A DNA stretch of 21,496 nt from the IMG/VR virus record IMGVR_UViG_3300027673_000002, positions 62,001-83,496 of that record. One strand, written 5' to 3'. Made by a program: the position numbers and the translations under genes. The notes beneath the pieces are model-generated. The model worked only from the letters and a program-made list of their open reading frames with translations. It was not told the DNA's origin and made no database searches. Shown in pieces: positions 1,499 to 13,364 of this stretch; positions within the stretch are counted from its first letter, which is position 1; each line of letters opens with the position of its first letter. This DNA comes from an uncultured virus (IMG/VR IMGVR_UViG_3300027673_000002). Its lineage: Duplodnaviria; Heunggongvirae; Uroviricota; Caudoviricetes.

Positions 1499-1500
1499 TA

Positions 1501-1576
1501 CCTGAGTATTTTGTAGGGTTTTCGTAGAAAGTTCAGAAACCGTGTATACTTGAGGCTTCAGCAACACAAACAGGAG
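1501..1576 (+). promoter_or_regulatory. Promoter/RBS cassette, type B copy 1
   Basis: GAGTATTTTGT starting at 1504, TATACT at 1545-1550, ACAGGAG RBS at 1570-1576. Closely similar to 2255-2326. Confidence 0.7.
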
Positions 1577-1584
1577 CTAGTACT

Positions 1585-1860
1585 ATGAATACCCTGCACA
1601 TTGAAACTAACCACGGTTTTGTTGAGCTTGAGAACTTCCACATTGAGCATAAGCCTCGCACATGGGGTGATTGTAAAGGCACATATGCTGTGGCAGTTGG
1701 TACGGTCAAAGCCAGTGTAGAAACCTCTCGTCTCTTCCATGCTAGTTCTAGCCGTGAGGTATACCCAAAGGGTACTGTGGTGGAGTGCGCTGTGTACAAC
1801 ATGCCTTATTGCACCGATAAAGAGAAAGATACGTGGTTCGTGTCTACCGTTAGCTTCTGA
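1585..1860 (+). CDS. Hypothetical protein (91 aa)
   Basis: ACAGGAG RBS, promoter cassette, phage-like codon usage. Confidence 0.8.
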   Translation: MNTLHIETNHGFVELENFHIEHKPRTWGDCKGTYAVAVGTVKASVETSRLFHASSSREVYPKGTVVECAVYNMPYCTDKEKDTWFVSTVSF

Positions 1861-1863
1861 AAT

Positions 1864-1907
1864 AAAATCCCTGTATTTTAGTCAAGTACTAAGATGCAGG
1901 GATTTTT
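1864..1907 (+). terminator. Hairpin/terminator overlapping promoter cassette type A copy 2
   Basis: 18-bp stem AAAATCCCTGTATTTTAG / CTAAGATGCAGGGATTTT with two G-U pairs, loop TCAAGTA, ending in a T-run just after the stop at 1860. Confidence 0.6.
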
Positions 1908-1940
1908 CTGTTATACTATAGGTTCTTTTAAACACAGGAG
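1876..1940 (+). promoter_or_regulatory. Promoter/RBS cassette, type A copy 2
   Basis: TCAAGTA at 1882-1888, TGnTATACT at 1909-1917 (same 30-nt offset as copy 1), ACAGGAG at 1934-1940. Confidence 0.75.
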
Positions 1941-1945
1941 TAGTC

Positions 1946-2197
1946 ATGAATCAATTCTCTAAACTTACTACTGCACAAAGCGTAGCAATCCCTCTCGGTA
2001 GCATTATTCGTGCGTTGTACATTGGCAGTGAACCCTGCATATGCATGGTTACTGACTCCAGACTCAAGTATGGTGGTAAGGTTGGGTATACTTGTATGCT
2101 TATGCATGACATGAAGCTTTCTTTTCGCAAAGAAGTCTATAAAAAAGGTATGAGTATTGGTATCAATAACACTGAGGTTCTGGAAATTCTTGAGTAA
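1946..2197 (+). CDS. Hypothetical protein (83 aa)
   Basis: ACAGGAG RBS and promoter cassette. Confidence 0.75.
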   Translation: MNQFSKLTTAQSVAIPLGSIIRALYIGSEPCICMVTDSRLKYGGKVGYTCMLMHDMKLSFRKEVYKKGMSIGINNTEVLEILE

Positions 2198-2293
2198 TTT
2201 TGTAAGGATTTCTAGAAATCTTGCAGAAATTTACCAGAAATTTCCGAATAATTTCCGAGTATTTTGTGGGATTTTCTGGAAATTCTCAGAAAT
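2178..2293. repeat. Degenerate ~11-bp tandem repeat (TTYnnnGAAAT-like) with phased A/T tracts
   Basis: About ten units, e.g. tttctagaaat, cttgcagaaat, ttaccagaaat, ttccgaataat, ttccgagtatt, ttctggaaatt. Confidence 0.7.
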
Positions 2294-2326
2294 CGGTTAT
2301 ACTAGAGGCTCATCAACGCACAGGAG
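2255..2326 (+). promoter_or_regulatory. Promoter/RBS cassette, type B copy 2
   Basis: GAGTATTTTGT starting at 2257, TATACT at 2298-2303 (same 41-nt offset as copy 1), ACAGGAG at 2320-2326. Confidence 0.7.
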
Positions 2327-2332
2327 TTCATC

Positions 2333-2758
2333 ATGGCATTCATTACCAAAGCAGAAGTCAAAGCTAAGAACGAAGCACTGAAGGCTATCAATAAGAAGTA
2401 CGGTGTTACTGCTCGTTTCTCTGGTAGCAACAGCAGTTCTTTGGATTTCAAAGCTACCAAGGGAAGTATTGATTTCATGAGCAATTGGTACGAGACTGTA
2501 AAAGCTTCTGCATTTAACCATGATAATATCGAAGAGAATTACAACTACGTAAAGAAGTACGGTAATCTGAAAGTTAACCATTACTACATGGACCGTGCGT
2601 TTTCTGGTATTGCATTGGAATACCTGCGTGAAGTCTACACTATCATGCTAGATGGTCATTCTGATGATTCGGATATCATGACTGATTACTTCAATTGCTC
2701 ATGGTACAACAGTATGCAGATTGGTGAGTGGAACAAACCCTATGTATTGGTAGCTTAA
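2333..2758 (+). CDS. Conserved phage protein with DxSDxMTDYF motif
   Basis: KKYGV...GSIDF...VNHYY...DDSDIMTDYF...IGEWNKPY matches a widespread phage early-protein family recognised from memory. Confidence 0.85.
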   Translation: MAFITKAEVKAKNEALKAINKKYGVTARFSGSNSSSLDFKATKGSIDFMSNWYETVKASAFNHDNIEENYNYVKKYGNLKVNHYYMDRAFSGIALEYLREVYTIMLDGHSDDSDIMTDYFNCSWYNSMQIGEWNKPYVLVA

Positions 2759-2777
2759 TATGCCTTCTGGAGTACCT

Positions 2778-2951
2778 ATGATTAGTATTCTATACCTTGA
2801 TAACAATACACAGATGTGGGTTATTCTTCCTAATTCACCAGAGTTTAAATCCGAATCTGAAGCTCTGGAATACATGGTTAAACGAAAGCTTACTAGGTTG
2901 ACATTTAAGTTTGTAAATAAGCTAAACGCTGATAGTTCTGCGGAATCCTGA
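2778..2951 (+). CDS. Hypothetical protein (57 aa; start re-assigned from 2760)
   Basis: GGAG at 2769-2772 precedes ATG 2778. Confidence 0.55.
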   Translation: MISILYLDNNTQMWVILPNSPEFKSESEALEYMVKRKLTRLTFKFVNKLNADSSAES

Positions 2952-3030
2952 TAGCTCAAGGTTTAATTGCAAATTCATTTACGGAATCCTGCGAGTAAAA
3001 TTGCAAATAGAAAAACGGAAACCTGCGAGT
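2941..3030 (+). repeat. 34-bp direct repeat (2 copies plus a partial third)
   Basis: AATTGCAAAT at 2965 and 2999; ACGGAAWCCTGCGAGT at 2981 and 3015; CGGAATCCTG also at 2941. Confidence 0.8.
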
Positions 3031-3066
3031 TCGAAGCAATTGAGCAGGTTCAAGGATAAATTTAAT

Positions 3067-3088
3067 ACCCGCCTAGTGCGGGTTTTTT
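3067..3088 (+). terminator. Rho-independent terminator
   Basis: ACCCGC-ctagt-GCGGGT followed by a T run. Confidence 0.85.
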
Positions 3089-3094
3089 ATTGAG

Positions 3095-3202
3095 TTAAAT
3101 ATTCGAATATACGAATATACGAATATGCATATATACGTATATAAGCAATCTTGAATATAAGCATATAAGCAATCGCAAATATAATCAGGCGCTTATATTC
3201 GT
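3095..3202. repeat. 8-bp periodic tandem repeat (CGAATATA-like)
   Basis: cgaatata cgaatata cgaatatg catatata cgtatata agcaatct tgaatata agcatata agcaatcg caaatata. Confidence 0.8.
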
Positions 3203-3622
3203 CATTGGTTATATAAATAGCTGTGCATATTAATTACATTGGCAATTAATTAATTAATCGATTAATTAGCTATTAATTGTTTCTGCAATTCCGAATTAAA
3301 AGCAAATAATTAGTTTATTCAATTGTTTATTCTGGAATTCCGAAACTAAATATTGCATACGGTATTAATCAATTAATCAATCAGCACTCAAAACCCTATT
3401 AATTCACCAATAGGTTTTATCAATAGCGCCTGGCGGGCAATAGATTTTAACTAATTAGTTGGCTTTTATAACCATTGCCTGATTTTTCAATTCTCTACTA
3501 AAGCATAGGGTTATATAACCCTGCAATTTACTAGGGTATTATTTTGTGATATAAGCTGGCAATAGCTTTTTACAATTGTATCCTGGCGTTTGATCAATAA
3601 AAGCTATAACCTATAGGTCAAA

Positions 3623-3716
3623 AGTTATCCACAGCCTATCATGAGTTATGCACAGTTTGTTCTACCCCTAGGGGTAAGCGTATCTGTGCATAAGTACGGA
3701 TTTTCTGTGGAAAACT
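3623..3716. promoter_or_regulatory. Four DnaA boxes in dyad symmetry around a 14-bp palindrome
   Basis: TTATCCACA 3625-3633 and TTATGCACA 3646-3654 on +; TGTGCATAA 3685-3693 and TGTGGAAAA 3706-3714 (reverse). All match TTWTNCACA. Centre TACCCCTAGGGGTA at 3663-3676. Confidence 0.85.
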
Positions 3717-3822
3717 AGCATCACAGCAGGGATATCTTTTTTTAATATCAAGGTATGCCCACGGCAAAAAACGCCCCAAAAGCCCGTTTAAGCCCCTTAC
3801 TGAGCCTTTTCGTATTATGAAA

Positions 3823-3838
3823 TGGTACGTTAGTTGCT
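3823..3838 (+). promoter_or_regulatory. Sigma54 (RpoN) -24/-12 motif
   Basis: TGGTACG-ttag-TTGCT versus consensus TGGCACG-N4-TTGCW; GG-N10-GC spacing is exact. Confidence 0.65.
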
Positions 3839-3876
3839 ACGCGTACGGGCGCGCATTCGCGCATTCTTTCCAGTCT

Positions 3877-3896
3877 GCAAATGAGAATAATTCTCA
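3877..3896. promoter_or_regulatory. Fur box (7-1-7)
   Basis: GCAAA-TGAGAAT-A-ATTCTCA, a perfect 7-1-7 inverted repeat at 3882-3896 close to TGATAAT-N-ATTATCA. Confidence 0.7.
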
Positions 3897-3959
3897 CCAG
3901 GCGGACGTTGTATTTTTACAACCAATAACCCTTGATTTTAGTCAACTAAAAATAAAAGC

Positions 3960-3988
3960 TTGCAAGGCAGTCTAGATACCTTCACAAT
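3960..3988 (+). promoter_or_regulatory. Sigma70 promoter for the 4044-6318 operon
   Basis: TTGCAA (3960-3965), 17 nt, CACAAT (3983-3988), with an A-rich UP-like tract upstream. Confidence 0.6.
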
Positions 3989-4043
3989 TGAACCCATCGG
4001 TTAAGCAATAACGCAAACCGAAACAACCCAAAGGTAAAGCATT

Positions 4044-4208
4044 ATGAAAACTGCAATTCATCCCGAAGCATTCCACGCTATCCGCGCAGCACAAAATAAG
4101 ACAAACTGGGGTTCCTATGCTGCAATGCGATACATCCAAAAGCGTAACGTTAACCCTGCATTGTATCGATTGGCGCAGCAACTGGAGAATGCACGTAAAA
4201 TCAAATAA
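4044..4208 (+). CDS. Small basic early protein (54 aa, not in ORF track)
   Basis: AAGGT RBS; MKTAIHPEAFHAIRAAQNKTNWGSYAAMRYIQKRNVNPALYRLAQQLENARKIK; first ORF after the promoter. Confidence 0.75.
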   Translation: MKTAIHPEAFHAIRAAQNKTNWGSYAAMRYIQKRNVNPALYRLAQQLENARKIK

Positions 4209-4210
4209 AT

Positions 4211-4266
4211 AGAATTATCTGATAATGCATTAATTACTAGTGCATTATCGGGCTAATTCTGGCCGA
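4211..4266 (+). other. Intergenic RNA hairpin copy 1 (putative RNase III processing site)
   Basis: About 22-bp stem with G-U pairs and a bulged C, 5-nt loop, followed by GGCCGA. Confidence 0.7.
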
Positions 4267-4286
4267 AAACCAATCAAGGTAATATC

Positions 4287-4514
4287 ATGAAATATCAGTC
4301 TACCCAATACCACAATCTGCAAACCATCGAAAACAATCCGCCCAAAATTGGTCAATGGGTAAAGATGGATAGCGGTATTCGTGGGCAATATCTAGGTAAA
4401 ACGAATTCCGGCGCGATTGTCATTCGCTGGCAAAATGGGAATTTTGGTACAGTAGCCGATACAAAATCCAATCATTATTTGCGCCGCTTCGCCGTTGTAA
4501 ATGGTTCCAAATAA
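4287..4514 (+). CDS. Hypothetical protein (75 aa, SH3-like)
   Basis: AAGGT RBS; IGQWVKMDSGIRGQYLG beta-rich pattern. Confidence 0.8.
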   Translation: MKYQSTQYHNLQTIENNPPKIGQWVKMDSGIRGQYLGKTNSGAIVIRWQNGNFGTVADTKSNHYLRRFAVVNGSK

Positions 4515-4528
4515 TCAAGGGTAATTAA

Positions 4529-4738
4529 ATGCGCATTGTTTCTGTAATCAATCGTTCGCTGGGTTGTAAGGCAAAAGTTTATTACAACTCGGAATATTCC
4601 GAATACGTTGTAAAATACTGGGATTGTGATGGAGTTCAATTGTCCGAGAGTACATTCTATTACACCGACGACAAAGATGATGCAATTAGCACTGCGCATC
4701 GGGAATTGGATTTCATGATCGAGAGGGAGACAATCTAA
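4529..4738 (+). CDS. Hypothetical phage early protein (69 aa)
   Basis: AAGGGT RBS; the AKVYYNSEYSEYVVK...YYTDDKDDAISTA pattern is common in phage early regions. Confidence 0.8.
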   Translation: MRIVSVINRSLGCKAKVYYNSEYSEYVVKYWDCDGVQLSESTFYYTDDKDDAISTAHRELDFMIERETI

Positions 4739-4792
4739 ATTTATCTGATAGGGCATTAGATAATAGTGCCTTATCGGGCTAATTTTGGCCGA
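4737..4792 (+). other. Intergenic RNA hairpin copy 2 (putative RNase III processing site)
   Basis: Homologue of 4211-4266 with compensatory changes. Confidence 0.7.
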
Positions 4793-4810
4793 TAATCCCT
4801 AGGGGTTAAA

Positions 4811-5179
4811 ATGTCTGCATTCCTATGCTCTGATGTTCATTTTTCTGTAATCGCTCACCACATTGGCAACAGACTAGCACTAAACCTAGAAACTATGCAG
4901 TCCATAGCCAATGAACTAAAAAGGATAAACATCCAATCGGTGAATTATCGATACAACGAAAAATCACGCATTACTAAATGCAAATTTGGCTTGCCTGAAA
5001 ATCACGCTAAACTAACAGCGCATGATATCCTGAAAATAATCGACTGCTATCTATATCAAGCCTGCGAAAATCACAATAACGCACAATGGCAAATTGTGAA
5101 CAATGCCCTACAGCACGAAAAATCCATATTGGTGCAACTAGGGGCTAATGCTAAATTGTCTAACATCTGGAGTATCTGA
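4811..5179 (+). CDS. Conserved phage hypothetical protein (122 aa)
   Basis: AGGGG RBS; MSAF...H, NxxSVNYRY and CYxYQACE motifs of a widespread phage family. Confidence 0.85.
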   Translation: MSAFLCSDVHFSVIAHHIGNRLALNLETMQSIANELKRINIQSVNYRYNEKSRITKCKFGLPENHAKLTAHDILKIIDCYLYQACENHNNAQWQIVNNALQHEKSILVQLGANAKLSNIWSI

Positions 5180-5181
5180 GA

Positions 5182-5493
5182 ATGAATAATAAACTTATTA
5201 CACGTAAAGAATATATGGAGAATTCTTCAGAATTGCACCATGTTTATTATTCTCAATTTTGTAATGAAGCAATAATCCGAATGGTTAAGCTTCACTTTCC
5301 CAAGGATTTACAGAATTATGAATTGCACCAATGGGATAAATTCTCAGATATGACGCGAGGTTTAATCGATATAAAAATCTGGAAACAAGCAAATGAATAT
5401 ACAGTTCCGGGTTTTTATCCTTGGAGTCTTTCTGACAATGTGTGCATTCTTAAAGCGGCGCATAAGATAATAAAGGAAACGAACAATGCCTAA
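5182..5493 (+). CDS. Hypothetical protein (103 aa)
   Basis: GGAG RBS; tightly coupled to both neighbours. Confidence 0.8.
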   Translation: MNNKLITRKEYMENSSELHHVYYSQFCNEAIIRMVKLHFPKDLQNYELHQWDKFSDMTRGLIDIKIWKQANEYTVPGFYPWSLSDNVCILKAAHKIIKETNNA

Positions 5494-6241
5494 AATCAAT
5501 AAACACAAAACCCCGGAATCCGGCATTATCTATCAAGGTCCGTCATTGATTGACGGTGCGCCGATTGTTTGCATTGTCGTCGCAAAATCAGACAATCGCA
5601 AAACTGGCAACATGGTTCAAACGTATATACTACGCTCGGATATAGACCCTATAGCGGCAAATAGAACGGGCGCGGATTATTCCATCTGTGGGAATTGTAA
5701 GCATAGGGGTAAGGCACAGCCTACAGATACAGGTAAGGGGCTAGCCATTGGCCGGACCTGCTATGTAAACATAGGGCAAGGCGTAGGGTCAGTGTATCGG
5801 GCTTTTCGTAATGGTTCTTACCCTATGCTAAGCCCCGAGCAAGCCACCAGAATGGGTTCGGGGCGAATGATTCGACTGGGAACGTATGGCGATGCATCGG
5901 CGGTGCCTAGCGAAGCTCTAAAGCCCCTTTTAAGCGCCGCAAAAGGCCATACCGCATACACGCACCAGTCGGGCCTGCTGGGTTCATCGGTTGACCTAAG
6001 CGCATTTATGGTTTCCGCCGATAGTGAAGCCGAAGCTTTGCAATGGCACGCTATGGGGAAGCGTACTTTCCGGGTTATTCCAATTGCAGATTCTAATAAG
6101 CCCCTATTGCAGAATGAGATAATGTGTCCGAATAGTACAAAGGGGATAGAATGCATTGATTGTCGGTTATGCAATGGTGGGAAAGTCGGGAAGTCTATTG
6201 CGATAGTAGCCCACGGTCCCACCGCTGGTAAATTCAAATAA
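5486..6241 (+). CDS. Cys-rich GP88/DUF7227-like protein (putative Fe-S, radical-SAM-like)
   Basis: SxNxKTG, CGNC...CY, RLGTYGD, AYTHQ and C-terminal CP...CIDCRLC motifs; family name recalled from memory. Confidence 0.7.
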   Translation: MPKINKHKTPESGIIYQGPSLIDGAPIVCIVVAKSDNRKTGNMVQTYILRSDIDPIAANRTGADYSICGNCKHRGKAQPTDTGKGLAIGRTCYVNIGQGVGSVYRAFRNGSYPMLSPEQATRMGSGRMIRLGTYGDASAVPSEALKPLLSAAKGHTAYTHQSGLLGSSVDLSAFMVSADSEAEALQWHAMGKRTFRVIPIADSNKPLLQNEIMCPNSTKGIECIDCRLCNGGKVGKSIAIVAHGPTAGKFK

Positions 6242-6261
6242 ACAAAAGGGGCAAATAAACA

Positions 6262-6318
6262 ATGATCGAATTACTCGCAATAATCGCCCTAATAGCAATA
6301 GCCATTAACCGACGTTAA
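6262..6318 (+). CDS. 18-aa hydrophobic peptide MIELLAIIALIAIAINRR
   Basis: AGGGG RBS at 6247-6251; lies between the GP88-like stop and the operon terminator. Confidence 0.55.
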   Translation: MIELLAIIALIAIAINRR

Positions 6319-6334
6319 TTAACCCCTATTTAAT

Positions 6335-6361
6335 AAGCCCGACTAATAATCGGGCTTTTTT
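6335..6361 (+). terminator. Rho-independent terminator
   Basis: AAGCCCGA-ctaataa-TCGGGCTT running into a T tract. Confidence 0.85.
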
Positions 6362-6711
6362 ATTGCCTATTAAATAACAGTGTTATACGTGCAATTAATA
6401 TATCGTATTGGCGCCTGGCGTTTAATTGATTTATATAATCGGGCATTCTAATAGCCTTTTAATTCGCTTTTAATTAATGCACGCTAATAGCGCCAGGGCT
6501 AATAGGCGTAATCAATCGTTATGATATTTTAATATCGTATAGCTATCGGGGCGGGGCGGTTGTATACCAGACTAAGCACCCATGCCAATTTTCGTTAAAA
6601 ACGACCTAAATTAAACACCCATTTAACGAAAATAAATCATTTCAATAATAAACAAAGCGCAAACAACGCAATAACAACTGCTCCAAAAGCTGTTATAACC
6701 TGCACAAAAGG

Positions 6712-6811
6712 CTCAGGAAGGTATCTAAAACGCTCTCAGTGCAATTTATTTTGAAAGTTAGTACCCAGATAGGTACAAAGCATAAAAACGCCTCAAAACG
6801 CGTTTAAATCG
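6712..6811 (-). repeat. ~100-bp dispersed element, copy A (gyrase-site-like)
   Basis: Reverse complement aligns block by block with 9547-9656. Confidence 0.7.
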
Positions 6812-6838
6812 GTCTTGTGATACTTGATATTTGGACGT

Positions 6839-6868
6839 AAAAAAAACCCCAAGCAGTTACGCTTAGGG
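6839..6868 (-). terminator. Rho-independent terminator of the clpP-phoH operon
   Basis: Minus strand reads CCCTAAGC-gtaact-GCTTGGGG followed by T8. Confidence 0.85.
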
Positions 6869-6883
6869 ATATTTCTATAATTT

Positions 6884-8293: not shown

Positions 8294-8554
8294 TCAGGCA
8301 GTTTCGGTTGCAGTTTCTGGATCAGAACCTTCTTCTTTTACTTCTACAGGAGCTTCAACTTTATCAGATTTAGTCTTTTTAGCTTTAGCTTCTTTTTCTA
8401 CTTTTACGAAACCAATTTCGTAGATATTACCGTACACAGCAGGGCAGGTTTTTACATCATCTACATCAATCGTGTAACCATCTTTGAAATGCTGTTCTAG
8501 GACTTGACAGAACTCAACAAGAGAGTAAGCTTGAACTGTTTTAATTTCTTTCAT
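8294..8554 (-). CDS. Hypothetical protein (86 aa)
   Basis: AAGGAG RBS; first gene of the minus-strand operon. Confidence 0.85.
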   Translation of the reverse strand: MKEIKTVQAYSLVEFCQVLEQHFKDGYTIDVDDVKTCPAVYGNIYEIGFVKVEKEAKAKKTKSDKVEAPVEVKEEGSDPETATETA

Positions 8555-8591
8555 TTGGACTCCTTAAGGTTTGTGTTAACTAACAAGGTGA

Positions 8592-8620
8592 ATTATAGCA
8601 CAACCGACGCAGAAAAGCAA
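8592..8620 (-). promoter_or_regulatory. Sigma70 promoter (leftward)
   Basis: TTGCTT-17-TATAAT with extended TG on the minus strand. Confidence 0.75.
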
Positions 8621-8657
8621 ACGTTATATACCTCTTAGCAATATTTTCTAAGTACTA

Positions 8658-8686
8658 TTGACATTTTGTGCTTTGTGTGATACCCT
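8658..8686 (+). promoter_or_regulatory. Sigma70 promoter (rightward)
   Basis: TTGACA (8658-8663), 17 nt ending in TGn, TACCCT (8681-8686). Confidence 0.6.
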
Positions 8687-9037
8687 ATAAATAATATACG
8701 TATATTATATACATAATAACGCTAGTAACATTAGTAATAATACACGTTTAAACATACATATCATGTTAACGATTCCAATAGTAATATAGTTATTTAAAAC
8801 GTATATAGAAACTAAACTATAACTAACGTTATAAATATTGGATACGCGCACGAAGCAGAAAAGCTATCTTTGAGCTAATTCGTAAAACTTAATTCTTTTC
8901 TCTCTTGCTGGCTCACCCTAGTAGCGTTAATAGATTCTTAAGCTGCAATCCAATTGTGTCCTAAGCTGAAAGCGCAAACTCAAAACCAATTAACGAACGT
9001 ATAACGCTCATTACAACTTACGTATCCGAAAGATTTT

Positions 9038-11126: not shown

Positions 11127-13364
11127 ATGAGCATCAAGGTCAAGCAAGGCGGCGCGTATGCCGACATCGTGGGGGCTTTCGTCAAGCAGGGCGGCACGTA
11201 CGGCGCCGCGTCTGTGTTTGCGAAAGTCGCTGGGGCTTATCAGGCTGTGGGAGGTGGGGGCGCGCCGCCCCTGCCGACTGTGGCCGAAATTCTCGCAACC
11301 TACGGCGCTGACGCTCATATGTGGATTGCCGGTGTTGGCGAGGTCAATGGCTTCGATGCCGAGAACTGGCTGAACAGCAACTTCACGGGCACCGCAGCCG
11401 TCGGGTCCACTGTTGGCTCAGTGGGTAATGTCGCAGAAGGCGTGGTCACTTTGTCTCAAGGTACTGCGGGCAGCAGGCCCACGCTTCGTCAGTCGGCGGC
11501 AGTTTTTGGCTGGGAGTTCGACGGCATCGACGACGTGCTGACCATGAGCGCCGCGCCGTTCAGCTTCCCGAACGATGTCACCTGCATCTTAGGGGCGACT
11601 CCTACAACGCACACCACTGACAAAACGCTGTTTTCTCTGCGAGGAGCAACAAGCCGCTTTGAGATAACTCACACCACATCAAATCGATTCCGCTTTAATT
11701 GGAACATCCCAAGCGGATCTTTTATTACGCCACCAGAGGTGGTCGTTGACCAGCCCGCCGTTGTCACGTGCATCAACCTCACTAACAATGTGCAAATGCG
11801 TGTGAATGGCGGTGGCGTCGGAGATAACTTCCTCGCAACGCCCACTTTCACTACAAACCAGAACCATATAGGAGCAACCAACGGCGGATCGTTTGGTTCT
11901 CGATATAAAGGGCAAATTCACTGCGTCATCTTGATTCGAGCCCAAGTAACTTTTCAGGAGTTGAAAGTCCTTGAGCAGTTTGCGGCGGTGCTGTCTGGCG
12001 CAACAATATCGCAGCAAGGAGTTCCCACCTACTTCGAAACAGCGCCCTTGCTTGCTGGCCTGATGGGTAACTACACTACTTCTGGTGCACGCTACCCTTT
12101 GTACCGAGATGAATCGGCTTTGTTTTTAAATATAAAAGCGGAGCGTGCGACGTTGTTTTGCCGGGCGGGAGACACGACCCCTTATCTAGTCATGGTTGAC
12201 CGTTTGGATTTTCCAAATTGGACATTGCCTTCCGTTCTTGATCAGTCAGGAGCAGTCACGACAAACCCAGGCGACATTCGAAAAATTGATTTGTTCAATG
12301 GCGAAAACCTAGAGCGTCAAGTCTTGCTGTTTTCCGAGAACTCCGATTTTGGACAGAGCCTTGGAAGCGACGAAGGAAAGCTGCTTGCCCTCTACGGTGA
12401 AAATGTGAGTGTGTCTCCGGTCGGCACGCGCTACTACTGCGCCGACCCGGCATTTCCCGGAGTCATAACTAACCCGACGCTGCCCAATTCGGGCAAGTTG
12501 CCGAACTTCCCGCAGTTGACCAATGGCGCCCAGTGGAGTCCCGGTCGGCACGTCGGCAGTGTGCATTTCCGCGCACGTTTCACAGAAATGTACATCTTTT
12601 GCGCTAACAGTCAAGTTGAGGTGTCGGTTGATGGCCAGCCATTTCAAAGGTATTCGCTAACACCGGAATACACGATAGTCACCAGATCACAAAATTGGCG
12701 CAAGCTACCAATAACGGGAAACGGCACTGTACAGAGCGTCATCATTTCTGGGTCTGGCAGTTTCAGCGGAAACGGCGTGGACGGCGTGATAACGGGGGTT
12801 TTGCTCACGGGGCCGGGGCACGAGGTTCTGGCTCCCGCAGGCACCCGTCGGCACGTTGTTCAGTTTGGAGCTTCGCAGACTGAAGGCGTAGAGGCGCAGG
12901 GTTTGATTGACCTGCACTTAGCGCAAGATCGTTTGCCGATATATGCCCTGTCTGCTGGGGAAGCGGGAAGAAGTGTTAGGCAGGCTGTCGAAGACGCAAA
13001 CGGGTTTGATGCGTGGGCGGCGCAAGTCACCAGCAAAGACATACTACTGATTTCCCTTGGCATCAACGACGTTACGGACGACAACGTCTTTCAGTCGAAC
13101 TACGAGCTTCTGATTTCAAAGGCTTTGGCTGCTGGCTTTAACCGCGTGCTTTGCCAAGGGCTGGGGTTTCCACCCAGCGGATGGGCTGGCAGAAATAGCC
13201 GCATTGCTGCTGCTGTTGCCAACGCGGCGAACCCCAATGTTCTCTACATGAACATTGATTCATGGGCGGGCGATTACGGGCCTGTGGGTGTCCACCCCAC
13301 ACGCGACGGCTACTTGCTTAAAGCGCAGTACATGGTGGATCAATACGCTTCGTTTTTCGTATGA
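11127..13364 (+). CDS. Putative virion spike/adhesin: LamG-like lectin domain plus C-terminal SGNH/GDSL esterase
   Basis: N-terminal KVKQGGAY-type repeats; QGTAGSRPTL...FDGIDDVL (LamG-like); VQFGASQTEG, LGIND and GVHP (SGNH blocks I, III, V). Confidence 0.75.
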   Translation: MSIKVKQGGAYADIVGAFVKQGGTYGAASVFAKVAGAYQAVGGGGAPPLPTVAEILATYGADAHMWIAGVGEVNGFDAENWLNSNFTGTAAVGSTVGSVGNVAEGVVTLSQGTAGSRPTLRQSAAVFGWEFDGIDDVLTMSAAPFSFPNDVTCILGATPTTHTTDKTLFSLRGATSRFEITHTTSNRFRFNWNIPSGSFITPPEVVVDQPAVVTCINLTNNVQMRVNGGGVGDNFLATPTFTTNQNHIGATNGGSFGSRYKGQIHCVILIRAQVTFQELKVLEQFAAVLSGATISQQGVPTYFETAPLLAGLMGNYTTSGARYPLYRDESALFLNIKAERATLFCRAGDTTPYLVMVDRLDFPNWTLPSVLDQSGAVTTNPGDIRKIDLFNGENLERQVLLFSENSDFGQSLGSDEGKLLALYGENVSVSPVGTRYYCADPAFPGVITNPTLPNSGKLPNFPQLTNGAQWSPGRHVGSVHFRARFTEMYIFCANSQVEVSVDGQPFQRYSLTPEYTIVTRSQNWRKLPITGNGTVQSVIISGSGSFSGNGVDGVITGVLLTGPGHEVLAPAGTRRHVVQFGASQTEGVEAQGLIDLHLAQDRLPIYALSAGEAGRSVRQAVEDANGFDAWAAQVTSKDILLISLGINDVTDDNVFQSNYELLISKALAAGFNRVLCQGLGFPPSGWAGRNSRIAAAVANAANPNVLYMNIDSWAGDYGPVGVHPTRDGYLLKAQYMVDQYASFFV

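Follow-up and report, generated by a model that had tools for sequence, protein, structure and literature searches.

The DNA analyzed here, referred to as the window, is a stretch of 21,496 nucleotides spanning bases 62001 to 83496 (the last 21.5 kb) of the 83,496-bp IMG/VR viral contig IMGVR_UViG_3300027673_000002, and our subject is a non-coding control region that precedes a six-gene operon in it. The contig ends overlap by 127 bp, which points to a circular assembly and not to mapped termini. Whole-genome GC is 41%, and Pfam matches across the genome include a T7-gp4-like primase-helicase, DNA ligase, ribonucleotide reductase (RNR), an HU-like protein, and a Gad1 homologue. The window itself encodes PhoH, a ClpP-like protease, six tRNAs, terminase, and portal. 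The terminase shares 60% identity with that of Limnohabitans phage DC31 and 47% with those of Pakpunavirus phages such as PaP1; the source is a lytic DC31/Pakpunavirus-like phage.

With greedy calling of open reading frames (ORFs) of at least 60 amino acids (aa), no intergenic gap in the 83-kb genome is larger than the control region, at 1020 bp. It lies between the terminator of a block of small plus-strand genes and the six-gene plus-strand operon. An earlier reading of the letters alone (the original prediction) had described it as an ORF-free array of binding motifs for many host proteins, possibly a landing pad for incoming phage DNA. All the sequences which it listed are present at their positions. 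No long ORF is found, but ORFs of 46 to 52 aa overlap the gap. The features are as follows.

3067 to 3092, plus strand: intrinsic terminator (stem ACCCGC...GCGGGT, then a T-run), ending the upstream small-gene block and forming the left border of the non-coding region
3082 to 3381, no strand: AT-rich left half (GC 0.29), a candidate unwinding element containing the 8-bp tandem repeats and the 18-bp palindrome
3098 to 3143: 8-bp tandem repeat, 5.8 copies
3139 to 3556: iteron ATATAAGC, copies at 3139, 3155, 3163, 3191 (minus strand), and 3549
3251 to 3268: 18-bp perfect palindrome TAATTAATCGATTAATTA
3407 to 3573, plus strand: direct repeat GGCAATAG-N-TTTTWAC at 3436 and 3558, with the variant CCAATAGGTTTTATC at 3407
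3507 to 3522, no strand: 16-bp perfect palindrome AGGGTTATATAACCCT
3623 to 3716, no strand: array of four predicted host DnaA boxes, two rightward and two leftward around CCCCTAGGGG
3715 to 3822, plus strand: A/T-tract spacer of 108 bp, including the conserved block AAAAAACGCCCCAAAAGCCCGTTTAA (about 3766 to 3791) of the nine-module alignment described below
3823 to 3837, plus strand: sigma-54-type -24/-12 element TGGTAC-GTTAG-TTGC, one mismatch
3838 to 3866, plus strand: CG tract TACGCGTACGGGCGCGCATTCGCGC, GC-rich and partly alternating, right after the -12, with a potential hairpin GCGCGC-ATTC-GCGC
3879 to 3922, no strand: two dyads, candidate operators, AAATGAGAAT-A-ATTCTCA and GTTGTA-TTTT-TACAAC
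3960 to 3988, plus strand: weak sigma-70-like promoter TTGCAA-N17-CACAAT ahead of the operon
4044 to 6241, plus strand: six-gene operon (54, 75, 69, 122, 103, and 251 aa)
6758 to 6809, plus strand: spacer block, second copy, within the following non-coding gap (6242 to 6883)

Sites that stand out from chance

The four predicted DnaA boxes, at 3625 (plus strand, the perfect TTATCCACA), 3646 (plus), 3685 (minus), and 3706 (minus), are exactly mirror-symmetric about 3669.5, the center of CCCCTAGGGG. All four matches to TTWTNCACA in the 21.5-kb window fall inside the 90 bp from 3625 to 3714. At up to one mismatch, the 83-kb genome holds 20 DnaA-type sites, with the sole perfect box in the control region. 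Palindromes are likewise in excess: 10 dyads with arms of at least 7 were counted in the region versus 0.75 in dinucleotide shuffles (about 13-fold enrichment), and none of 300 shuffles reached 10. The 8-mer ATATAAGC occurs five times in the region and not once in the remaining 82 kb, which classes it as an iteron in the sense of three or more origin-specific direct repeats. The repeat GGCAATAG-N-TTTTWAC, searched at up to two mismatches, gave three window matches versus 0.23 expected, two of them in the region. The clustering of boxes, the excess of palindromes, and the confinement of the iteron to the region are all beyond chance, and the proposal that so dense a set of sites is unlike ordinary promoter DNA is borne out.

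Not every motif of the original prediction beat chance, as the DnaA boxes and dyads did; its sigma-54, ATAG-N7-CWAW, and Fur matches were near chance or weak when taken alone. The sigma-54 match TGGTACGTTAGTTGC carries one mismatch, and 1.19 such matches are expected per window. ATAG-N7-CWAW was observed 7 times versus 3.9 expected, with 9 of 100 shuffles reaching 7, and the copies that had been called LysR/OxyR boxes are direct repeats of a longer word (the repeat at 3407 to 3573), not dyads. The supposed Fur box, a 7-1-7 dyad TGAGAAT-A-ATTCTCA at 3882 to 3896, agrees with 14 of the 19 positions of GATAATGATAATCATTATC, which we took to be the 19-bp Fur consensus for scoring, and no match was found at three or fewer mismatches. 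The G/C at mirrored positions of this dyad recurs in other phages, which indicates a protein other than Fur. The alternating purine/pyrimidine tract is at its place but is unbroken for 10 nucleotides (nt) only (3838 to 3847), and the gyrase-site-like stretch (3751 to 3810) is part of the conserved A-tract spacer. Naming sites by consensus match alone (Fur, LysR, gyrase) is misleading in AT-rich phage DNA.

Several of these results bear on one alternative, that low-information motifs accumulated by chance in AT-rich spacer DNA. In its favor, each sigma-54, LysR-type, or Fur-type match lies at the chance level or close to it, and a sigma-70 scan found fewer promoter-like sites than shuffles did (1 versus 7.5). 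This alternative is nevertheless contradicted by the recurrence of the ordered module in relatives, besides the three features that beat chance, and we give it next to no credence. Judged from its sequence, the region is a dense, selected set of putative protein-binding sites.

Conservation of the module in related phages

We sought relatives via the terminase, the 251-aa gene of the operon, and a conserved gene of roughly 80 aa, independently of the motifs. Eleven of 80 terminase loci reached the syntenic gene, and the other 69 were uninformative on the module. Ten independent relatives were readable (DC31, L123, L131, L134, G002, G003, G004, G005, G006, and L004); loci L390 and L391 (G007 and G009) are cut by contig ends and stand outside the counts. 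An opposed array of three to seven DnaA boxes, followed after 76 to 110 bp by TGGCAY-N5-(T/A)TGC, was found in 8 of the 10 (DC31, L123, L131, L134, G003, G004, G005, and G006). The recurring order is iterons, opposed DnaA-box arrays, A-tract spacer, TGGYAY-N5-TTGC, alternating CG tract, dyad, and early operon, and it is kept in relatives with otherwise unalignable DNA. The original prediction had proposed conservation in relatives as a check, and three of its site types do have counterparts at matching places: DnaA boxes, sigma-54-type element, and 7-1-7 dyad.

The cultured phage DC31 is syntenic. Its gene order runs from a 141-aa gene through a 931-bp gap, small genes, and a 253-aa gene to protease and PhoH on the other strand, tRNAs, and the terminase. 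The DC31 gap could not be aligned with the window region by BLAST. Its layout is nevertheless the same: direct repeats are accompanied by five perfect DnaA boxes, of which three are forward and two reverse; a spacer of 110 bp leads to a perfect TGGCAC-AGATT-TTGC, and CGCGTGCGCGTGCG follows. In L123 the whole unit is inverted with the internal 110-bp spacing kept. Curvibacter phage P26059A, found via similarity in the box region, has a weaker, inverted version without a -24/-12 match.

In an alignment of nine modules, the TGG.A and TTGC columns are invariant, and the last box with ACTTTTT, the AAAACG..TTAAA block, and the CG tract are conserved. The -24/-12 consensus is perfect in DC31, L131, G005, G004, and L123. 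Tracts of the CGCGTGCGCGTGCG type occupy the place of the CG tract in relatives and also in the unrelated modules L248, L370, and L379. About 40 nt downstream lies AAATGAGAA, where the 7-1-7 dyad of the window aligns; AAATGAGAA itself aligns with AAATGAGAAAC-AAAGTTTACA of relatives. Closer to the operon, the CACAAT of the sigma-70-like promoter aligns with TATAAT or TACAAT; this promoter agrees with the consensus at 8 of 12 positions and was hence not called by the consensus scan. The spacers measure 76, 89, 99, 108, and 110 bp, with A-tracts about 10 to 11 bp apart, and these lengths fall within 2.5 to 5.0 bp modulo 10.5, which suggests a preserved helical face.

When the nucleotide sequence of the region was compared with 50,697 phage records, near mode yielded nothing and distant mode one 39-nt terminator-like match. 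An exact scan for the window's own box arrangement hit no other IMG/VR contig, and no relatives came from locus searches that used the 141-aa gene or the ClpP-like gene as a single protein. We rejected a host chromosomal origin of the module: the refined pattern had 2 matches in 596 Gb of bacterial genomes, about the number expected by chance by our estimate. By these searches the module is phage-specific.

Window-like architectures also occur in unrelated contigs. In L248 (1236 to 1660), L370 (246 to 660, reverse strand), L379 (159 to 680, reverse strand), and L238 (1344 to 1640), 6 to more than 10 DnaA boxes are followed after about 100 to 125 bp by sigma-54-type elements, and in the first three a GCGTGTGCGCGTG-type tract comes after the element. 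L208 (1355 to 1680) and about 19 similar IMG/VR contigs carry a AATGAGAATCATTCGCA dyad, three reverse DnaA boxes, and, after a gap of 101 bp, a perfect TGGCACACTGTTTGC about 45 nt before the first ATG of an operon. Upstream of 251-aa homologues in L080 (5616 to 5811), L081 (4176 to 4369), L082 (69 to 464), and L083 (3065 to 3337), we observed arrays of five to nine (7 to 10 by another count) TGGCAYG-N4-CTTGC sites in alternating orientation, about 20 bp apart, some face to face (TGGCAC-N5-TTGC-N5-GCAA-N5-GTGCCA). These arrays look more like protein-binding palindromes or a sponge than like promoters.

Such arrays make little sense as promoters and are one reason to consider a decoy. An amplified array would soak up host DnaA, as datA does, and possibly sigma-54 holoenzyme, and would shut down host initiation or the nitrogen and stress regulons. 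High-affinity perfect boxes are numerous in some relatives and unrelated contigs (5 in DC31, at least 9 in L248, L370, and L379), and sigma-54 holoenzyme is described as binding promoters stably while inactive (PMC4591121). The window, however, has one perfect box and one imperfect -24/-12 site only, and elements that occur once each, in strict order and spacing, favor an assembled complex over a sponge. An integration host factor (IHF) site of the datA kind is also missing from 10 of 10 spacers, the spacers being the DNA scanned. A decoy appears quite improbable to us.

The -24/-12 element and the DNA around it

The element at 3823 has TGGTAC-N5-TTGCT in place of TGGCAC-N5-TTGCW, one mismatch at the proper -24/-12 spacing, and it is the sole match in the genome at up to one mismatch that retains GG-N10-GC. 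Among the proteins of the phage we detected neither DnaA nor a DnaA DNA-binding domain, and neither sigma-54 nor a sigma-54 activator ATPase (PF00158). The factors reading the boxes and the -24/-12 element would therefore be derived from the host or be unrecognised phage proteins.

One way to read this half of the region is as a pure enhancer-type promoter, with the DnaA array as upstream activating sequence, a bent spacer, and a host sigma-54 promoter for the early operon, backed up by the sigma-70 promoter and controlled by the dyads, and with no replication role. An array, a bent spacer of 76 to 110 bp, and a -24/-12 element form the textbook layout of sigma-54 promoters, the five spacer lengths are in phase as described above, and the retained GG-N10-GC is unique in the genome. 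L208 and L238 have a perfect TGGCAC-N5-TTGC about 45 nt before the first ATG of an operon, with DnaA boxes upstream. In the lineage of the window, however, the element lies about 200 to 290 nt before the first ATG, and a separate conserved -10 box is closer to the gene. The phage lacks both sigma-54 and its activator ATPase, we know of no case of DnaA activating sigma-54, and the IHF consensus WATCARNNNNTTR was found in 0 of 10 spacers (a scan of the spacers only). A spacing test across IMG/VR was weak: 106 stretches had boxes and element 95 to 125 bp apart versus 50 at 295 to 325 bp, box clusters occurred in 11 of 80 versus 8 of 50, and both spacing results were driven by families of related contigs. 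A universal fixed spacing from DnaA boxes to sigma-54 elements across phages was rejected as unsupported once this spacing control was applied. The promoter reading also leaves the iterons and the AT-rich half unexplained, and we regard it as rather unlikely.

Another version holds that the DnaA array is the enhancer itself: DnaA-ATP on the opposed arrays, together with the phased bent spacer, would license an activator-less -24/-12 promoter. Licensing would come about through DnaA-driven unwinding or supercoil transfer, with the CG tract beside the -12 as a distorted junction. The three-part set of DnaA boxes, TGGCAC-N5-TTGC, and a AATGAGAAT-N-ATTC dyad is present in the sequence-unrelated contigs L081, L083, L208, L238, L248, L342, L370, and L379. 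If this version were true, phage early transcription, replication priming, or both would be tied to the replication-initiation state of the host; we think it highly improbable.

Beyond the element, the two dyads at 3882 to 3896 and 3907 to 3922 (GTTGTA-TTTT-TACAAC) are candidate operators. Near-identical AATGAGAAT-N-ATTC dyads occur in L004, L081, L083, L208, and L342. In divergent phage contigs, the form AATGAGAAT-N-ATTC(T/G)C stands beside sigma-54-like sites or DnaA boxes (L004 at 4740, L081 at 4406, L083 at 3254 and 3280, and L342 at about 85 to 170) and fits the Fur consensus poorly. We also considered a structured RNA in the 200 nt after the -24/-12 element and rejected it, as the consensus fold reached -3.2 kcal/mol with one compensatory pair; an Rfam search gave sub-threshold AT-hairpin noise only.

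A candidate replication origin joined to early-operon control

The left half supplies what the promoter readings leave aside. By nearest-neighbor energy, no 300-bp stretch of the 83-kb genome is less stable than positions 3082 to 3381, with 8539 to 8838 effectively tied. The iteron ATATAAGC also lies upstream of the DnaA array in DC31 (three copies), L131 (four), G003 (four), and L179 (nine). It is absent from L134, G004, G005, and G006, which have CAGTCA-containing repeats upstream instead, a sub-lineage pattern such as would be expected of a phage protein co-evolving with its site. In a close strain sampled in run X2, one contig skips 32 bp (4 x 8) of the tandem array at 3129 to 3162. Over 3247 to 3381, the strain differs at 3 of 135 bases, versus 5 to 17% in coding pieces, all from low-depth contigs; the drinking-water runs X2 to X4 contain small shares of the stretch only. 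A sequence similar to the 16-bp palindrome, AGGTTTATATAATAACCCT-N-ATTTACTAGG, is found in the syntenic gap of L004.

The layout, with iterons in the least stable DNA, opposed arrays, a bend, a promoter-like element running into a GC tract, and dyads, matches that of iteron plasmids and of oriC, and because of this match we read the region as an origin. Our preferred interpretation is a composite cis-acting control module in which a replication origin is fused to the control region of the conserved early operon; we hold it tentatively, at slightly less than an even chance. A generic landing pad accounts for the fixed order of the elements no better than an origin and promoter module does.

In such a module, host DnaA would oligomerise on the two opposed arrays and a phage protein would bind the iterons, whereupon the AT-rich left half would open. 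The phage's T7-gp4-like primase-helicase and PolA, which we take to be the phage's own polymerase, would take over after opening. Transcription from the -24/-12 element, or a stable closed complex there, might activate or prime the origin across the CG tract or gate the operon, and the dyads would act as operators. A precedent is the related Pseudomonas phage vB_PseuGesM_254, in which Ori-Finder predicted an origin that has DnaA boxes and AT repeats and does not lie at the 628-bp terminal repeats (PMC11512268).

Several observations weigh against this interpretation. The cumulative GC skew turns only at the strand switches near 20 and 54 kb, not at the control region, though skew is weak evidence in phages. 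The predicted origin of PseuGes_254 is in a divergent gap beside the primase/helicase gene, and the equivalent gap here, at 54.2 to 54.6 kb, is 11 kb away. No recognisable Rep or initiator family was found among the genes flanking the iterons, the fold of the 251-aa protein is unmatched, and the sigma-54 activator ATPase is missing from the phage. Two of the 10 relatives have no clear array, G002 having two distant boxes and L004 none. The -24 element of the window is mismatched, and such a match is expected by chance alone. The easily melted DNA begins about 240 bp from the first DnaA box, and AT-rich intergenic DNA often melts easily, as the equally unstable gap at 8539 to 8838 illustrates.

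Genome ends and flanking genes

The position of the region in the gene map raises the possibility of a genome-end or entry element, lying in or beside a direct terminal repeat and comparable to the injection-stop region of T5 or to a left end of the T7 type. The landing-pad model of the original prediction belongs here: host proteins would pause, anchor, or shield the incoming DNA, and membrane-bound DnaA would be an example of such a protein. The terminase groups with those of Pakpunavirus/PaP1-type phages, which have 1.2-kb terminal repeats (PMC12846349). The PaP1 terminus lies between a plus-strand block of small genes and a minus-strand block with the protease, and by synteny a terminus would fall at the control-region gap or at 6242 to 6883. 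In many of the 30 phage records listed, among them those of mycobacteriophages, Gordonia phages, and roseophages, homologues of the 251-aa protein lie 0.1 to 5 kb from a record end. In T5, an untranslated region combines repeats and palindromes with DnaA boxes in inverted pairs (bioRxiv 10.1101/866236).

However, no DnaA-box cluster was found at the PaP1 ends, where stretches of 26 and 13.7 kb hold 0 to 2 one-mismatch sites. In L123 and P26059A, the module is turned around with respect to its flanking genes, which sits uneasily with a polar entry signal. One contig of the source run (15,355 nt, with a single depth figure) covers window positions 1500 to 6500 with neither break nor joint and is uninformative for repeats, ends, or doubled coverage, and the papers on the two isolated relatives state no termini. 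A genome-end role is in our view unlikely.

Of the six operon genes, those conserved encode the 75-aa protein (phrog_21585) and the 251-aa protein (DUF7227, phrog_2554); the first ORF is not conserved among relatives. The 251-aa protein (5486 to 6241), which we considered as a possible initiator, is Cys-rich, and its confident AF2 model (pLDDT 85) had no PDB fold match at an E value of 0.001 or below. Beyond it, the gap at 6242 to 6883 separates the 251-aa gene from the convergent ClpP-like gene and shares the words GCGCCTGGCG and ATCAAT with the control region. Its second spacer block (6758 to 6807) has 74.5% identity over 51 nt to 3742 to 3791, and over positions 6784 to 6809 all 26 bases agree with the module spacer in the relative G004. 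The equivalent gap of DC31 carries TTATATAAGC iterons. The related elements in this gap mean that the operon is bracketed by related non-coding elements.

Elsewhere in the genome, the second AT-rich intergenic stretch, at 8539 to 8838, lies upstream of the PhoH/ClpP operon and is as unstable as the left half of the control region. A 745-aa ORF directly before the terminase (11127 to 13364) has a GC content of 0.53 to 0.56, versus 0.41 for the genome, and no PHROG match, and may be a recently acquired gene. The Gad1 homologue (Gabija anti-defense; Pfam PF25705, E value 1e-52) is at genome positions 53166 to 54212 on the minus strand (L175, 13166 to 14212); it is the first gene of the minus-strand block and adjoins the divergent gap at 54.2 to 54.6 kb.

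Implications

To our knowledge, lytic phages with their own replisome are not generally thought to need host DnaA, and hardly any sigma-54-type promoter is known from a phage. A full-text literature search on sigma-54/RpoN-dependent phage promoters returned no paper on the subject, and what surfaced on DnaA boxes in phage genomes was the T5 preprint and a single origin predicted by Ori-Finder. Phages already known to carry DnaA boxes in their non-coding DNA are T5, P1, and, by prediction, PseuGes_254. Our literature searches turned up no case of opposed DnaA arrays coupled in conserved form to a bent spacer, a -24/-12 element, and a CG tract. The module of DnaA array and -24/-12 element is conserved across a freshwater and wastewater phage lineage, and it raises the questions of whether host DnaA starts the replication of a lytic phage and what fires a sigma-54 promoter in the absence of an activator. 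Two members of the lineage are in culture, Limnohabitans phage DC31 and Curvibacter phage P26059A, so these questions can be answered at the bench.

Comparison with known systems

The T5 parallel which the original prediction had drawn is in print: the preprint describes an untranslated repeat region with eight DnaA boxes as a proposed injection stop (bioRxiv 10.1101/866236). The mechanism of this Repeat Region 3, or injection stop signal, is itself a proposal (Davison, bioRxiv 10.1101/866236), for which the module is a concrete comparison. Both are untranslated regions of about 1 kb, dense in direct repeats, inverted repeats, and palindromes, with several DnaA boxes in closely spaced pairs and inverted arrangement, and both surpass neighboring ORFs in conservation. 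The T5 region, in contrast, lies inside a mapped 10-kb terminal repeat beside A1/A2, whereas the phage analyzed here is a circular assembly; no -24/-12 element or CG tract is reported for T5. The names A1 and A2 did not come up in our PHROG or Pfam scans.

The phage vB_PseuGesM_254 is a related myovirus of similar size, and it too has an intergenic origin of AT repeats and DnaA boxes apart from its terminal repeats (PMC11512268). That origin is a prediction and occupies a divergent gap beside the primase/helicase, whereas the window module lies between two co-directional gene blocks.

Compared with enhancer-dependent sigma-54 promoters such as glnAp2 and pspA, the window differs in that its upstream sites are DnaA boxes, its spacers and those of relatives lack the IHF consensus, and the phage has no activator gene. 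It shares with them GG-N10-GC in a TGGCAC/TTGC context, a multi-site array about 80 to 200 bp upstream, and bent DNA in between.

Bacterial oriC combines two opposed arrays of DnaA sites with an unwinding element. There is no dnaA/dnaN context and no GC-skew switch at the control region, and the refined module pattern is essentially absent from bacterial genomes. The likeness lies in the opposed box arrays, head-to-tail with 2-bp spacing in DC31-type relatives, and tentatively in the AT-rich repeated element beside them.

Iteron replicons with DnaA boxes include P1 oriR, F oriS, RK2 oriV, and pSC101. The window has no recognisable Rep gene and no second cluster of ATATAAGC, and the phage has its own primase-helicase and polymerase. 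Like these replicons, the control region combines iterons, an AT-rich stretch, and DnaA boxes with GC-rich DNA in front of a promoter that has dyad operators, and in DC31 a second iteron cluster lies beyond the operon, in the manner of incA or incC.

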